NCBI RefSeq assembly: GCF_055900595.2 | Contig: NZ_CM148325.1 | Length of the DNA stretch: 64,000 nt | Direction: 5' to 3' (one strand) | Shown here: in pieces, positions 37,801 through 64,000 of the stretch | Layout of the letters: the number at the start of each line of letters is the position of its first letter | How positions within the stretch are numbered: the stretch's first letter is position 1 | Made by a program: the position numbers

Positions 37801-40800
37801 CGCTCACTACGCGCGAAGTGGCTGAAACTATCAGCAACGGCGAAGCCGGATGCTTTATGCACGGGCCAACCTTTATGGGCAATCCGCTGGCCTGCGCGGC
37901 AGCAAACGCCAGCCTGGCCATTATCGAATCTGGCGACTGGCAGCAGCAGGTAGCGACTATTGAAGCACAACTGCGCGAGCAACTGGCTCCTGCCCGTGAC
38001 GCCGAAATGGTTGCCGATGTGCGCGTGCTGGGAGCGATTGGCGTGGTCGAAACCACTCGTCCGGTGAATATGGCTGCGCTGCAAAAATTCTTTGTCGAAC
38101 AGGGTGTCTGGATCCGACCTTTTGGCAAGCTGATTTACCTGATGCCACCCTATATCATTCACCCGCAACAGTTGCAGCGCCTGACCGCAGCGGTTAATTG
38201 CGCGGTGCAGGATGAAACATTTTTTTGCCAATAACGAGCAGTCAGCGTGAGGTTTTCTGGCTACACTTTCTGCAAACAAGAAAGGAGGGTTCATGAAACT
38301 CATTAGTAATGATCTGCGCGATGGCGATAAGCTGCCGCATCGCCATGTCTTTAACGGCATGGGTTACGATGGCGATAATATTTCGCCGCATCTGGCATGG
38401 GATGATGTTCCTGCGGGAACCAAAAGTTTTGTCGTCACCTGCTACGACCCGGATGCGCCAACTGGCTCTGGCTGGTGGCACTGGGTAGTTGTTAACTTAC
38501 CCGCTGATACCCGCGTATTACCGCAAGGGTTTGGCTCTGGTCTGGTAGCAATGCCAGACGGCGTTTTGCAGACGCGAACTGACTTTGGTAAAACCGGGTA
38601 CGATGGCGCAGCGCCGCCGAAGGGCGAAACTCATCGCTACATTTTTACCGTTCACGCGCTGGATGTAGAACGTATTGATGTCGATGAAGGTGCCAGTGGC
38701 GCGATGGTCGGGTTTAACGTCCATTTCCACTCTCTGGCAAGCGCCTCGATTACTGCGATGTTTAGTTAATTGCTCAACCAGATGGCGCAATGCTATCTGG
38801 TATCACTTAAAGGTATTAAAAACAACTTTTTGTCTTTTTACCTTCCCGTTTCGCTCAAGTTAGTATAAAAAAGCTGAACGTGAAACATTAAAAGCCATTA
38901 ATATCAATGCATTACAATATTTTTAGTCTAAAAAATAGACTACATAATGCTACAAAACACAACATACCCAGTCACTATGAATCAACCACTTAGATGGTAT
39001 TAGTGACCTGTAACAGAGCATTAGCGCAAGGTGACTTTTTGTCTTCTTGCGCTAATTTTTTGTCAAACACATTACGTCGTTTGCTGAATTTACAACCATG
39101 CTCAGTATCTCGATAAGCGCAGAGAAATGATGCAGTGGTGGGCGGATTGGCTTGATGAAAAGGTGTAGCAACCAACATTGCTATATCTCAGATAGCACAA
39201 AGCCTTGCAATCCAGTGCAAAGCTTTGTGTGTCTCAGTTTTGTCTCATCGGTAATTATGTGTTCGCTACGATGCAAGAATCCATACCAATAAGCATCCGA
39301 TAATTGGGAAAGAAAAATCCAACAAACTTCCCACATCCCACACGCGTGGATCAAAACCTCCCCACCACGGCATGTTGACACGTTTCCCTTTCCCAAACTT
39401 TTCTATCCAGCGATATTCTGCCTGGGTGTGTTCACGCGCAATGAAGAACGTACAACCGGCTATCGCACCGTAAGCCCAGTTTCCGGTAAAAATACCAACC
39501 AGTACCTGAGCCGCAAAAGCGCAAAGCGAGTGAAGAAATGGAGTGACATCAATGCTCTTAATCATGAAACTTCCCCATTGGTTGAAAATATGGCTCCTCC
39601 AACTCCAAGTGTATTTCGTGTTGTGCTCAACCTAAGAGGGCTGGAGTCAGAATTAGAATATCCTGTAGCAGAAATAAAAGATCCTCCACTAATAGTCAAC
39701 TGCGGAACATCGGCTATATCTGAATAAGTTCTGTCAGCAACAGTATTATTTATAGCCACATGTGATCCAAAAAAACTTCTTATTGTTTGGTTTTTAACTT
39801 TACTTCCTTCAATGGTTATCCTACTACCACAGTCAGCAATAAATCCTGAATCTGCATCCAGCGTTGCATTCATAAAAGAAGCTTCAGATCTCTCTACATC
39901 AATCCATCTAATATCTTTTGTGGGATTTGCACCAAATACATGACAAATATTAGAGTTAAACCTTACACCATCTTGGAGGTGCATTAATTTTTTTATATCT
40001 GTACCCCATAGCCTTGGAAAATTAACAGATGCTCCTGCATGGCAATCAAATCCCAGCTCAACCCCTGAGATATCTACAGCCTTTCCGGAAATAACAGCAC
40101 CAGTGTCTGCATTAACGGCTGTTCCACAATTGCGCATATCATTACCAGCAACATCAACACAACCCGCACCATCAATACGCACACCAAGTGCACATCCATA
40201 AAAACCTTTTTCAATATTTGGTTCAAGGACTTTACCACTTGTTTCTGCATCACTTTCTTCAACGTCATGTCGTCTTGCATCAACATATGCTGTATGAATG
40301 CACGTTAATCCACGATATGAGCAATGTATAGTTTTATGGTCGCGTATATTAACATTTGAACCATCTCTTACATTCCATCCTATATAACAATAGCTTGCAC
40401 TTGACCCCTGAAAATCTGCTTTAACATTATAAATACAATTAACTGACGCAACCGTACTCTCTGTGCACCGTTCAAACTTACTTACAGGCATTGATGCCTT
40501 GACATTATTTACCAGTTGCAGGGAAGAGTATCTGCTATAAGAAAAATCACATACGTAATACCCTTCTGGCATATATGCAGCAACACTTTCCTCATCAGGA
40601 GCACATCCGGTATGATATGCACTAATTTTTGCACCAAAACTACCATGAATTCCAACGTAGAACTTTCGAGCACCTGAATACGGATAGAAATTAAGTTCAG
40701 CTTTTTGAGTTACAATAAATGCACAAACATCGCTATCATCTCTATTTTCTTCAATCTGAATAGCAAATACAGGACTTTTTGCTGCATCGCAAATGTAAAA

Positions 40801-61800: not shown

Positions 61801-64000
61801 TGGCGGCTATGGTTTGATTCGATTTCGTCTACTGCTTCCTGCCCGATGCGGTTAATCAGTTCGACGCGATACGGAACGAGATTTCCGCTTTTGTGCTGGT
61901 TGCACACCACGCATTGCTTGTGAATATTGCGTTCATCAAATCGGAGTTGAGGTGCCGCAGCAGTTGTCCGGTAATGTCCGGCATCCCACTGAGCAGACGT
62001 GAGCGTTCCGCACGAGATACATGGTAAGTCGCGGTCTCTTTCTCTGATGAAGGCGTTTACGGCTTGTTGGGCTTGTTTAATCCAGTAACTGCGGGGCTTT
62101 AAGGCGAGTTTTCGAATCTTCAGTTTATCTTTCTGTTTCTGCTCCTCTCGTCGTCGTTTCTTCTCTGCTGCTTTTTCCGCTTTTTCGCGTTCTTTACTTC
62201 GTCGTTCGAGTGCTAATTGAGTTCCGTGTTCCGGGCTGCACCACCACTGATTTGAGAATGCCGGGTGAAACCATTCCTTGCAGATTTTGCATTTCCTTCG
62301 CGCTGGTTTAGCCATCGTCTTCTTCCTCGTACATTGAGCTATTCGGATCGCTCATCAGTTCTGCGCAGCAGTGCTCACACACGTGAACTTCCAGCACATG
62401 CAGCTTCTGACCGCAGTTAGCGCACGTTAAAGCCCGCTCGACGCTTTGTTGTTCGTAACTTCGATTTGGGTCAATCACCTTGTTTTCCTCGCACGTTCTC
62501 TAAGCCACCGGATATCCCACAGGTGAGCCGTGTAGTTGAAGGTTTTTACGTCAGATTCTTTCGGGATTGGCTTGCGTTTATTTCTGGAGCGTTTCGTTGG
62601 AAGGTATTTGCAGTTTTCGCAGATTATGTCGGTGATACTTCGTCGCTGTCTCGCCACACGTCCTCCTTTTCCTGCGGTAGTGGTAACACCCCTGTTGGTG
62701 TTCTTTCACGCCGGAGACACCATCGATTCCAGTCAGGTTGATTTGGTCGGAAGCGGTTATCTTCTTTGCATTCACCGCACCGATAACATCGCATCATGCA
62801 GCTTCCCTCCCGAAGTCGAAATAAAGCTGCCCTCCAAATATTTCGCATGACTCAGAACAAGAGCCGGTATCGAATCTTTTAGCTCGTACCATGTCCTGAT
62901 ACAGGGCTTGATAATCATTTTCTGAATACATTTTCGCGATACCATCCAGCGACATTCTTCCTCGGTACATAATCTCCTTTGGTGTTTCCCGATGTCCGTC
63001 ACGCACATGCGATCCCGTGATGACCTCATTAAAAACACGCTGCAATCCCTCCTCATCTTTACAGGCAAGTCCGATTTTTTGCGTTGATTTTTTAATGCAG
63101 AATATGCAGTTACCGAGATGTTCCGGTATTTGCAAATCGAATGGTTGTTGCTTCCACCATGCGAGGATATCTTCCTTCTCAAAGTCTGACAGTTCAGCAA
63201 GATATCTGATTCCAGGCTTTGGCTTTAGCCGCTTCGGTTCATCAGCTCTGATGCCAATCCACGTGGTGTAATTCCCTCGCCCGAAATGGTCATCACAGTA
63301 TTTGGTGAAGGGAACGAGTTTTAATCTGTCAGTGCAGAACGCGCCGCCGACGTATGGAGTGCCATATTTCTTTACCATATCGATAAATGGCTTCAGAACA
63401 GGCATTTTCGTCTGAATATCCTTTGGTTCCCATACCGTATAACCATTTGACTGTCCAAGCTCTGGGTTGATATCAACCTGCAATACAGTGAGCGGTATAT
63501 CCCAGAACTTCACAACTTCGCGGATAAACCGATATGTCATCGGGTGTTCACAACCTGTATCCATGAAAACGTAATGCACGTCTTCACCTGCCTGTCGCTT
63601 TTGCTCCATTAGCCAGAGCAAATATGCTGACGTCCTGCCACCGGAGAAACTAACGACATTTATCATGCAGCCCTGTCTCCCCATCTTGCTTTCCACTCCA
63701 GAGCCAGTCGCGCTTCGTCTGACCACTTAACGCCACGCTCTGTACCAAATGCCTGTATAAGCTCTAATAGCTCCGCAAATTCGCTTACACGCATCCTGCT
63801 GGTTGACTGGCCTATTACCACAAAGCCATTCCCGGCAAGGTTAGGAACAACGTCCTGCTGCTTTAATGCTGCTGTAAAAACGCACTTCCAGCTTTCTGCA
63901 TCCAGCCAGCGACCATGCCATTCAACCTGACGCGAGACGTCACCAAGGCAAGCCCAAAGTTTCCGATTTTGGTCTAAGCTGCGGTTACGTTCCTGAATGG

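Follow-up and report, generated by a model that had tools for sequence, protein, structure and literature searches.

A putative tmRNA-mimic RNA gene in the late region of a P22-like prophage at the lambda attachment site of Escherichia coli

Introduction

The window analysed here is the whole stretch of 64,000 nucleotides taken from contig NZ_CM148325.1 (NCBI RefSeq assembly GCF_055900595.2). From 38860 to its end at 64000 it holds what we take, with high confidence, to be the right-hand late half of a temperate P22-like (Lederbergvirus) prophage, inserted at the Escherichia coli lambda attachment (att) site in the ybhC / ybhB-bioA interval. Between the late promoter pR' and the holin gene S of this prophage lies an unannotated stretch that resembles the messenger-like part of bacterial transfer-messenger RNA (tmRNA) and that we call the tmRNA-mimic RNA. 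It is very probably a real, conserved RNA gene. We further propose that it represents an undescribed family of tmRNA-derived phage RNAs that lacks a tRNA-like domain and acts on the host tmRNA in the manner set out below, a reading to which we assign a probability of roughly 0.45. No description of such an RNA was found in the searchable literature, whose coverage is incomplete, so an earlier description is possible.

A first-pass annotation, made from the sequence alone, had presented this prophage as a notable mosaic of lambda and P22. It had labelled the interval between Q and S simply as pR', and had overlooked the RNA gene that occupies the same interval.

Results

A conserved RNA with a tmRNA-like tag frame

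In the window, the tmRNA-mimic RNA carries the frame GCA AAC GAT GAT TTG ATG TTG ATG GCG GCC TAA, whose product ANDDLMLMAA resembles the E. coli SsrA tag ANDENYALAA. A frame of 10 codons is found in 127/127 copies, with 15 peptide variants that follow the pattern AN(D/E)(D/E/N), two variable and mostly hydrophobic residues, L/M, A/M/V/I, A/V and A. Among the 25 distinct nucleotide versions, the final alanine is encoded by GCG, GCC, GCT or GCA, and the stop codon is TAA, TGA or TAG. An in-frame stop lies 8 codons upstream of the tag, with no in-frame ATG, GTG or TTG (126 copies scanned). The UAAAU that precedes GCA is invariant; its U(-5) and A(-4) correspond in position to U85 and A86 in the E. 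coli tmRNA, both of which are needed for correct frame choice (PMC2481249).

Our structure proposal was drawn from an alignment of 37 diverse copies and comprises four elements with 27 pairs: a short helix upstream of the tag, a second helix around the stop codon (cf. tmRNA helix 5) and two H-type pseudoknots. The proposed helices are paired in 96.5% of the alignment cells, with compensatory changes at 12 of the 27 pairs; 0/500 shuffles scored as high, and slid controls paired in 36-50% only. Examples of compensation are the loop CCGA/TCGG, which is replaced by CCAG/CTGG or CCAA/TTGG, and GCCC/GGGC, replaced by ATCC/GGAT or GGCGGGAG/CTCCCGCC. Over the tag frame, Rfam returned sub-threshold matches only, to permuted and beta-proteobacterial tmRNA models.

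A sensitive blastn search located the core of the element in hundreds of phage records; in the records examined, it is unannotated or is overlapped only by a 'hypothetical protein'. At least 120 IMG/VR contigs, 7-160 kb in length, matched in an exact-pattern scan. The family is widespread among phages of enterobacteria, its carriers being lambdoid phages, P1/P7-like phages, siphophages of the Sashavirus/Skatevirus type, T5-like contigs of ~110 kb and phages of ~157 kb. The siphophage copies lie in a ~600-bp gap between tail genes, on the opposite strand and with tRNA genes downstream, and have a near-consensus promoter just upstream (e.g. TTGACA-17-TAGATT). The element is also present in 669/5,426 complete E. 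coli genomes, where 568 of the places found lie on plasmid records and 150 are chromosomal. Among the matches listed, the plasmid records measure 89-117 kb and are presumably P1-like, and none of the E. coli matches carries an RNA annotation of the element.

These observations bear on the possibility that the stretch is a functionless, decaying fragment of the host ssrA gene and that its complementarity to tmRNA, described below, arose by chance. Such an origin would fit a region that is highly mosaic and rich in tRNA-like scraps, and it would fit an element in which no tRNA-like domain was found and on which ARAGORN and Rfam make no call. Against it stand the conservation across unrelated phage types, the compensatory changes in the stems and in both pseudoknots, the coding pattern of the tag frame, and the dedicated promoter of the siphophage copies on the strand opposite to their neighbours. 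The preference of the leader for the host tmRNA over its own tag region speaks in the same direction. We therefore consider a decaying host fragment to be very improbable. A captured ssrA fragment was also rejected by direct comparison, since blastn with host ssrA finds no family member and only ~20-38 nt around the tag align.

Complementarity of the leader to the host tmRNA

The invariant 5' leader of the RNA (AGUUUUCGUCAGAGUUGGCGACUUUGCGGGUUUU in the window) is complementary to positions 70-105 of the E. coli tmRNA, with 29 predicted base pairs. The longest block, AGUUUUCGUC, matches G96-U105 at 10/10 positions and so covers tag codons 3-5 (GAC GAA AAC). It is accompanied by GUU facing A93-C95, by GCGACU facing A86-C91, which takes in A86 and positions 1 and 2 of the resume codon, by UUGCGG facing C75-A80 in the 3' strand of pseudoknot 1 (PK1), and by UUUU facing A70-A73. 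With RNAduplex, the window leader and tmRNA 69-106 give -32.9 kcal/mol, compared with -25.2 +/- 2.7 kcal/mol for shuffled leaders that preserve mononucleotide content only; 3/500 of these were as low.

The choice of target is consistent across the family. For 34/34 distinct leaders (126 copies), the best site is tmRNA 69/73-105/106, at -23 to -37 kcal/mol. We also considered a cis hairpin between the leader and the element's own tag region, whose codons 3-5 have diverged from those of the host; it was ruled out by mean energies of -16.7 kcal/mol for the own tag region and -32.6 kcal/mol for the host site, the host being the better partner in 60/60 combinations. The target sequence is identical in the ssrA genes of E. 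coli and Klebsiella, and that of Salmonella has one extra A. The predicted pairing is thus long and falls on a functional site of a host RNA, as expected of a prophage anti-RNA.

Short forms, long forms and the tRNA-like domain

Copies of the RNA occur in two forms. The short forms of HK620 and MK54 start a few bases before the leader and end right after the second pseudoknot. The long forms, including that of the window, carry an extra variable hairpin and a conserved domain of ~110 nt, at the end of which a 5-bp stem with the loop ACGAAAC shows compensatory changes.

The window copy was searched for a G3-U70 pair, a CCA end, a canonical T-loop and a consistent acceptor stem, none of which was found. 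With default settings, the sole tmRNA call that ARAGORN made over the extracted copies (L054) reads another frame and ends on a tRNA-Met gene, and relaxed settings on the Q-S gap gave only inconsistent guesses of permuted tmRNA or tRNA. The candidate acceptor 5' strands GGGTAAC, GTTTTCG and GTTGTGG, matched against the sequences that follow the terminal hairpin, were rejected as inconsistent across the short and long forms and with the promoter-proximal starts in the siphophages.

The RNA might instead be a complete phage tmRNA, with a tRNA-like domain that escapes recognition through splitting, permutation or divergence; it would then be charged and act independently of the host tmRNA. The sub-threshold Rfam matches to permuted tmRNA models point that way. 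So does the situation in T5-like contigs, where a canonical tmRNA T-arm, GCGGGTTCGATTCCCGC, follows the tag at a distance of ~220 nt and a candidate acceptor pairing is present, so that some phages may have a split arrangement. In the long form of the window, moreover, the 7 nt that come after the hairpin with 5 bp and a 7-nt loop could pair with the upstream spacer strand. However, the short forms of HK620 and MK54 begin at the promoter and end after pseudoknot 2, which makes an acceptor stem impossible; the window copy lacks the tRNA hallmarks named above, and no tRNA-like gene was found near the element in HK620. On this evidence we regard a complete phage tmRNA as unlikely, and continue with an RNA in which no tRNA-like domain was found. 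As a separate observation, in one T5-like IMG/VR contig of ~112 kb (L031, 7754-8163) the possible acceptor pairing is GGGTGAT/GTCACTC. The stretch with the T-arm that follows the tmRNA-like unit there may be a separate tRNA-like piece, and its 3' end aligns with that of the E. coli tmRNA.

Spacers around the RNA

The RNA is flanked by two hairpins of one family (Table 1). In many phages, the tmRNA-like unit and tRNA genes are set apart by recurrent inverted-repeat spacers of this kind, CACAACAGGTAAGAG ... CTCTTAYCGTTGTGGTGAAT, whose loops vary. These spacers probably serve as processing stems and as recombination hot spots, and may be the 'boundary sequences' of mosaic exchange. In P7 (L013) such spacers lie at 985-1070, 1417-1485, 1625-1720 and 1955-2070, and spacer loops sometimes contain scraps of tRNA T-arms.

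A proposed action on the host tmRNA

Our best guess, which we infer from the complementarity described above, is that the RNA docks on the host tmRNA and masks its resume site. The RNA lies beyond the short pR' terminator, so it would be synthesized only with read-through by Q; in this lambdoid setting, that would confine transcription to the late phase. It would then be cut out at the spacer hairpins, giving a processed RNA whose 5' start would lie near AGUUUUCG. The leader would pair with the host tmRNA across the start of the template, so that A86, the resume codon and the opening codons of the tag would be hidden. This could end in either of two ways. In the first, tagging would simply be inhibited. 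In the second, the resume site and frame of the docked RNA would be used, and rescued proteins would receive ANDDLMLMAA and not ANDENYALAA. The coding pattern of the tag frame favours this substitution.

Several points weigh against this proposal. For substitution, a ribosome would need a route onto the docked template, which calls for caution. A tRNA-like domain of the window RNA was not found by ARAGORN at default settings, by Rfam at its gathering score or by manual search, which bears on how the tag frame could be translated. The leader and its target are both nearly invariant, and covariation therefore cannot test the pairing. In addition, the UUUGCGG/CCGCAAA part of the complementarity overlaps an internal helix of the element itself, and the shuffled leaders matched the real one in mononucleotide composition alone.

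Layout of the prophage

For the prophage, 33 open reading frames (ORFs) of the window were translated and compared with the proteins of lambda, P22, CUS-3, Sf6 and JEP4, and DNA segment maps were made. The features are listed in Table 1. From 39.2 kb onwards, the large ORFs are without exception on the minus strand, up to the end of the window, and no tRNA gene was found within the 64-kb window. The order terS, terL, portal, scaffold, coat, gp4, gp10, gp26, gp14, gp7, gp20, gp16, tailspike is that of P22, and each virion gene has a homologue in P22, CUS-3, Sf6 or JEP4. By the sequence, the late genes are read from pR' in the leftward direction under Q antitermination, first S, R and Rz/Rz1 and then the terminase and virion genes. 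By analogy with the P22 family, we infer headful packaging and a short-tailed virion.

Table 1. Features of the tmRNA-mimic RNA and of the prophage (positions in the window; aa, amino acids)
Feature	Position	Strand	Observation
tmRNA-mimic RNA	59687..60020	-	334 nt between pR' and S; unannotated, conserved, structured
tmRNA-mimic RNA, leader	60020 to ~59987	-	
tmRNA-mimic RNA, tag frame and stop	59962-59930	-	
tmRNA-mimic RNA, end of core	59854	-	
tmRNA-mimic RNA, end of accessory 3' domain	59687	-	
Spacer hairpin A	60033..60103	-	Same family as B; 94-96% to the P7 spacer that follows tRNA-Thr and to a spacer of Klebsiella phage MK54
Spacer hairpin B	59596..59686	-	CACAACAGGTAAGAG ... CTCTTTCCGTTGTG; same inverted repeats flank tRNA genes in P7/P1 and other phages
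Terminator-like hairpin, strong	60111..60139	-	13-bp stem and U-run, ~35 nt past pR'; short-leader tR' of P22/HK620 type
Late promoter pR'	60173..60201	-	TTGACT-17-TAAATT, within a stretch 97% identical to lambda downstream of Q
Antiterminator Q	60244..60867	-	100% aa identity to lambda Q; 96% to P22 gp23
nin region: ninI, H, G, F, E, D, C, B	60864..64000	-	94-100% aa identity to lambda Nin proteins; lambda order; ninB cut by the window end
Endolysin R (58492-58968) and holin S (58952-59275)	58492..59275	-	R 98%, S 99% to lambda; R no match to P22 gp19
Rz, with Rz1 (58111-58296) in the +1 frame	58058..58495	-	Chimeric: 5' part lambda-like, 3' part P22/Sf6-like
KilA-N domain gene	57335..57856	-	RefSeq name in EC332; PHROG match
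Gp49-family gene	56648..57046	-	97% identical to Sf6 gene 66; PHROG match; RefSeq name in EC332
Terminase: large (54662-56158), small (56136-56624)	54662..56624	-	TerL 92%, TerS 100% to P22 gp2, gp3
Coat (50199-51458), scaffold (51477-52370), portal (52461-54662)	50199..54662	-	95%, 99%, 99% aa identity to CUS-3
gp26-like tail needle, gp10-like, gp4-like, 62-aa ORF	47398..50157	-	Protein comparison
Ejection genes gp16-, gp20-, gp7-like and gp14-like	42984..47398	-	74%, 86% (N-terminal part), 93%, 92% aa identity to P22
129-aa ORF, signal-peptide-like N-terminus	42570..42959	+	PHROG 2651 (E 3e-61), function unknown; placed and oriented like P22 sieA
143-aa predicted lipoprotein (N-terminus ...LSGC)	42033..42464	-	PHROG 6823, E 3e-86, unknown function; lipobox from translation
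Mnt-like (Arc family) ORF, altered C-terminus	41766..42134	+	76% to P22 Mnt over 80 aa; PHROG Arc-like matches
Tailspike, 685 aa	39562..41619	-	P22-type N-terminal head-binding domain and different receptor-binding part
99-aa ORF between tailspike and att	39266..39565	-	100% to JEP4_21; PHROG 1443, E 9e-54; unknown function
CUS-3-type int remnant, 3' end, 120 bp	39088..39207	+	85% identity to CUS-3 1266-1385 (int = 192-1349)
Lambda P arm of attP	38875..39065	-	88% identity to lambda 27534-27742, ~200-210 bp; Int arm-type sites 1 and 2
attR core	38860..38874	-	Identical to the 15-bp lambda att core GCTTTTTTATACTAA; single exact window match

The attachment-site end

The first-pass annotation had placed one end of the prophage at the lambda attachment site, with 38860 as its start, and this holds to the nucleotide. 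The exact core, which was found in 0/100 shuffles of the window, stands at the gal-bio site next to ybhB-bioA, with bioB, bioA and ybhB directly outside attR (ybhB ends at 38769) and the P arm inside; the junction read here is that on the bio side, the gal side being beyond the window. The P-arm sites CTGTTACAGGTCACTAATAC and GTTGATTCATAGTGACTG are kept in a three-way alignment with the attP of lambda and JEP4, in which the lambda 'int 1' site is identical and 'int 2' is kept over the first 18/20 bases. The sequence of this end indicates entry through a lambda-type Int/attP module. Of the integration module, only attR is in the window, in which no integrase gene was found.

Lambda homology stops at 39065, and the int remnant that follows is annotated as a partial pseudogene in the RefSeq record of its counterpart in E. 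coli EC332. In CUS-3, Sf6 and HK620 the integrase adjoins the tailspike end of the prophage. The stub at 39088-39207 therefore marks the replacement of an older integration module by the lambda att-int module.

The nin region, Q and the lysis genes

The lambda character of nin, Q, pR', S and R is borne out at the DNA level. Window 60144-64000 is 97.0% identical to lambda 44609-40747, and lambda 46246-44847 matches window 58236-59614, which carries S, R and the 5' portion of Rz, at 93.4% identity. Between them, the lambda stretch 44609-44847, with most of the 6S RNA and tR', has no counterpart; window 59614-60144 stands in its place, a segment absent from lambda, P22 and JEP4 in the DNA segment maps. 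The terminator-like hairpin of this segment is common to P22 and HK620, and the HK620 record labels the stretch qut. As for the lambda late cassette, the alleles of Q, pR', S and R are thus present, and the 6S-tR' leader and the lambda Rz/Rz1 are not.

The earlier assignment of Rz and Rz1 to lambda does not survive protein comparison: Rz is 60% identical to lambda Rz and 92-94% to those of P22, Sf6 and CUS-3, and Rz1 is 41% identical to lambda Rz1 and 93% to that of P22. Within Rz, lambda DNA homology ends at 58236 and P22 homology spans 57872-58461, which on this mapping places the switch from lambda to P22 type inside the gene, at 58236-58461. In the Sf6 record, too, a mosaic 'boundary sequence' is annotated within Rz; by offset, it would correspond to ~58379-58426 of the window. 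A junction had previously been set at 57.0-58.0 kb, between Rz and the terminase genes, where we find the accessory Gp49-family and KilA-N genes.

Terminase and virion genes

The terminase is of P22 type, as had been claimed, with no match to CUS-3 or Sf6 for either subunit. The exact 22-nt P22 pac site, located in P22 gene 3 at 23479, is found at 56336-56357, which at the sequence level points to packaging by a pac-type headful mechanism. For the virion block, the attribution to P22 stands for gene order and group, but the portal, scaffold, coat and gp4 genes are of CUS-3 type (95-99%). Against P22, the coat is 28% and the portal 35% identical, and the scaffold has no match. Identities to P22 and CUS-3 are 61% and 97% for gp26, 93% and 99% for gp10, and 41% and 99% for gp4. 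Over 45639-54700 the DNA is 95.6% identical to CUS-3 and meets the P22-type terminase at ~54700. For gp10, gp14 and gp7, conservation extends to all P22-like phages; the gp20 and gp16 genes are internally mosaic. Lambda head and tail proteins, whose presence would have spoken for siphovirus morphogenesis, gave no match.

The tailspike had also been called P22-type. This applies to its first ~117 residues (96% to CUS-3, 74% to P22 gp9), and the remainder is of JEP4 type, the full-length protein being 97% identical to the JEP4 tailspike. Matches to the solved P22/Sf6 head-binding domains (E 1e-43 to 1e-68) cover residues 1-160 only; for the receptor-binding part, no sequence relative was found among solved structures.

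Accessory genes near the tailspike

The slot between tailspike and att is the position of lysogenic conversion genes in P22-like phages. The 99-aa ORF in this slot has no NCBIfam match. The EC332 counterpart of the Mnt-like ORF bears a pseudogene annotation. In the window, this ORF is followed by neither arc nor ant, so the immI region has decayed. The 143-aa lipoprotein and the secreted-looking 129-aa ORF, at the sieA position, are possible superinfection-exclusion genes.

Relatives of the prophage

P22-like phages are lambdoid by definition, and lambda-like regulation and lysis joined to P22-like morphogenesis is their standard layout. The closest relative at the same chromosomal site is a complete prophage of ~39 kb in E. 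coli EC332 (NZ_AP039429, 1573214-1612100), which is 99.85% identical to window 38700-60878 over 22 kb, after which the nin region diverges: upstream of Q, EC332 has rusA/roi-type nin genes instead of ninG-ninI. Its order is ybhC / int-xis ... N, repressor, cro, cII, replication, nin, Q, lysis, virion genes, tailspike / ybhB, and its Int is 99% identical to lambda Int. Among complete E. coli genomes, none was found to cover the nin junction better than EC332.

JEP4 (MT740315), an isolated Escherichia phage classified as Lederbergvirus, shares with the window attP, the tailspike (97%), the ORF downstream of it, the CUS-3-type procapsid genes and the P22-type terminase. The DNA identity over the shared structural genes and terminase is 96%, with a range of 96-100% for the procapsid/terminase set, and the JEP4 integrase is 99% identical to lambda Int. 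JEP4 differs in Q (no match), in Rz, in a longer needle and in other immI genes, and it lacks the RNA segment 59614-60103.

With P22 itself, the prophage shares the gene order of the whole late region, the terminase and pac site, the short pR' leader terminator, gp10, gp14 and gp7 (92-93%), Q (96%), the holin (90%), and the C-terminal part of Rz with Rz1. P22 differs in the coat, portal, gp4 and scaffold, in the endolysin gp19, which is unlike the lambda R of the window, in the receptor-binding part of the tailspike, which is unrelated, in its integration site (thrW, against att-lambda in the window) and in lacking ninC and ninI. The lambda likeness extends over the att core, the P arm, ninB to Q in lambda order at 97% DNA identity, the pR' hexamers, S and R; lambda differs in its head and tail genes, which have no match in the window, in the C-terminus of Rz and Rz1, and in the replaced 6S RNA/tR' segment. 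CUS-3 resembles the window in coat, scaffold, portal, gp4, gp10, gp26 and gp14 (95-99%) and in S-R-Rz (97% DNA identity), Sf6 in the lambda-type ninG-ninI and S-R-Rz, and HK620 in the short form of the tmRNA-mimic RNA downstream of pR'. CUS-3 and Sf6 differ in their terminases (no match), in their integration sites and Int, and in their tailspikes beyond the head-binding domain.

Could the prophage be a recent and unusual hybrid of lambda and P22, joined at two clean junctions? The 93-97% DNA identity of nin-Q and S-R to lambda, together with a terminase 92-100% identical to P22 at the protein level and its pac site, would suit such a cross. Yet the segment maps reveal at least five switch points, not two (39065-39088, ~54700, inside Rz and both flanks of 59614-60144), and the procapsid genes come from the CUS-3 type. 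The same lambda nin/Q/S/R alleles are already present in the P22-like phages Sf6, IME10, Sf101 and APC_JM3.2, and the same att-int module, tailspike and structural set are found in JEP4 and in the EC332 prophage. A recent cross is exceedingly improbable. The two junctions proposed earlier, in the Rz-terminase interval and at the att end, had been misplaced, and the one between terL and portal had been missed. Since the layout is standard for P22-like phages and the alleles and the int-att module occur in known relatives, the framing as a notable lambda/P22 hybrid is unsupported. The genome is a patchwork of alleles circulating among lambdoid phages. The prophage is a new combination of known modules and, on account of JEP4, the EC332 prophage and the lambda alleles in the phages just named, an ordinary P22-like phage, of small particular interest as a prophage.

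It seems quite improbable that the prophage is a defective remnant whose truncation or inactivation lies just past the window end. The late half alone is in view, an exact 120-nt query from the window end had no match among species-representative genomes, and the immI region is eroded (altered Mnt, arc and ant absent), though in a way compatible with a live phage. Against a remnant, the late ORFs from ninB through the tailspike are all intact, without internal stops, and EC332 has a complete, near-identical prophage in the same place. The limits of our identification of the prophage as a temperate P22-like phage lie in the same place: the early half, int and attL are beyond the window, and intactness is judged from relatives only.

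Host-side observations

The host backbone, 8061-39000, is ~95.3% identical to E. coli EC332, and its bio region is 90-99% identical to most E. coli genomes; the DNA may stem from a divergent Escherichia lineage. Two AT-rich islands, 3955-7956 and 26064-30496 (27-39% G+C), are absent from EC332. Their proteins resemble type III secretion effectors, with SopA/HECT-type E3 ligase-like proteins of 670 and 422 aa and a PipB2-like pentapeptide-repeat protein of 321 aa, next to proteins of 561 and 550 aa without a family match. As candidate defence systems the islands were rejected: they gave no PADLOC matches and carry type III effector-like genes instead. An ORF of 246 aa (20190-20930), without a family match, lies between ybhM and ybhL in an insertion of ~870 bp relative to EC332. 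A molybdenum-cofactor riboswitch (24570-24714, minus strand; Rfam 104.5 bits) stands upstream of moaA, as expected for the locus.

Discussion

If our reading is correct, the tmRNA-mimic RNA would give phages a new means of interfering with ribosome rescue and protein tagging, or of rewriting them. Host tmRNA affects the growth of lambdoid phages and of Mu. The function of the RNA is directly testable in well-studied carriers, P1/P7 and HK620. The main use of the prophage itself is as a clear-cut case of module exchange whose junctions are precisely located.

The tmRNA-mimic RNA shares with bacterial tmRNA a GCA resume codon preceded by U(-5) and A(-4), a 10-codon tag of the form AND...(A/V)A, a stop codon in a helix loop and pseudoknots that follow it. 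It differs in having a hairpin in place of PK1, two pseudoknots only, and a 5' end complementary to the host tmRNA. Detection tools separate the two as well, in that ARAGORN makes no call on the mimic and Rfam stays below its gathering score.

Among phages, the tmRNA surveys consulted list tmRNA genes for mycobacteriophages and Bacillus phage G only (PMC4131195). The mycobacteriophage DS6A encodes a tmRNA reduced to the tRNA-like domain, which is reported to inhibit the host tmRNA (PMC4131195, PMC11915505). The reduction in DS6A differs from that in the tmRNA-mimic RNA: the former keeps the tRNA-like domain only, whereas the latter keeps the messenger-like part only and adds an antisense leader. 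A further parallel is provided by AgvB and AsxR, which are described as prophage anti-sRNAs (RNAs directed against small RNAs, sRNAs) of pathogenic E. coli (Tree et al. 2014, as cited in PMC5286369). AgvB and AsxR, the DS6A form and the tmRNA-mimic RNA are alike as phage RNAs that act, or in the last case would act, on a regulatory or housekeeping RNA system of the host; the targets of AgvB and AsxR are Hfq-dependent sRNAs, whereas the predicted target of the tmRNA-mimic RNA is tmRNA.

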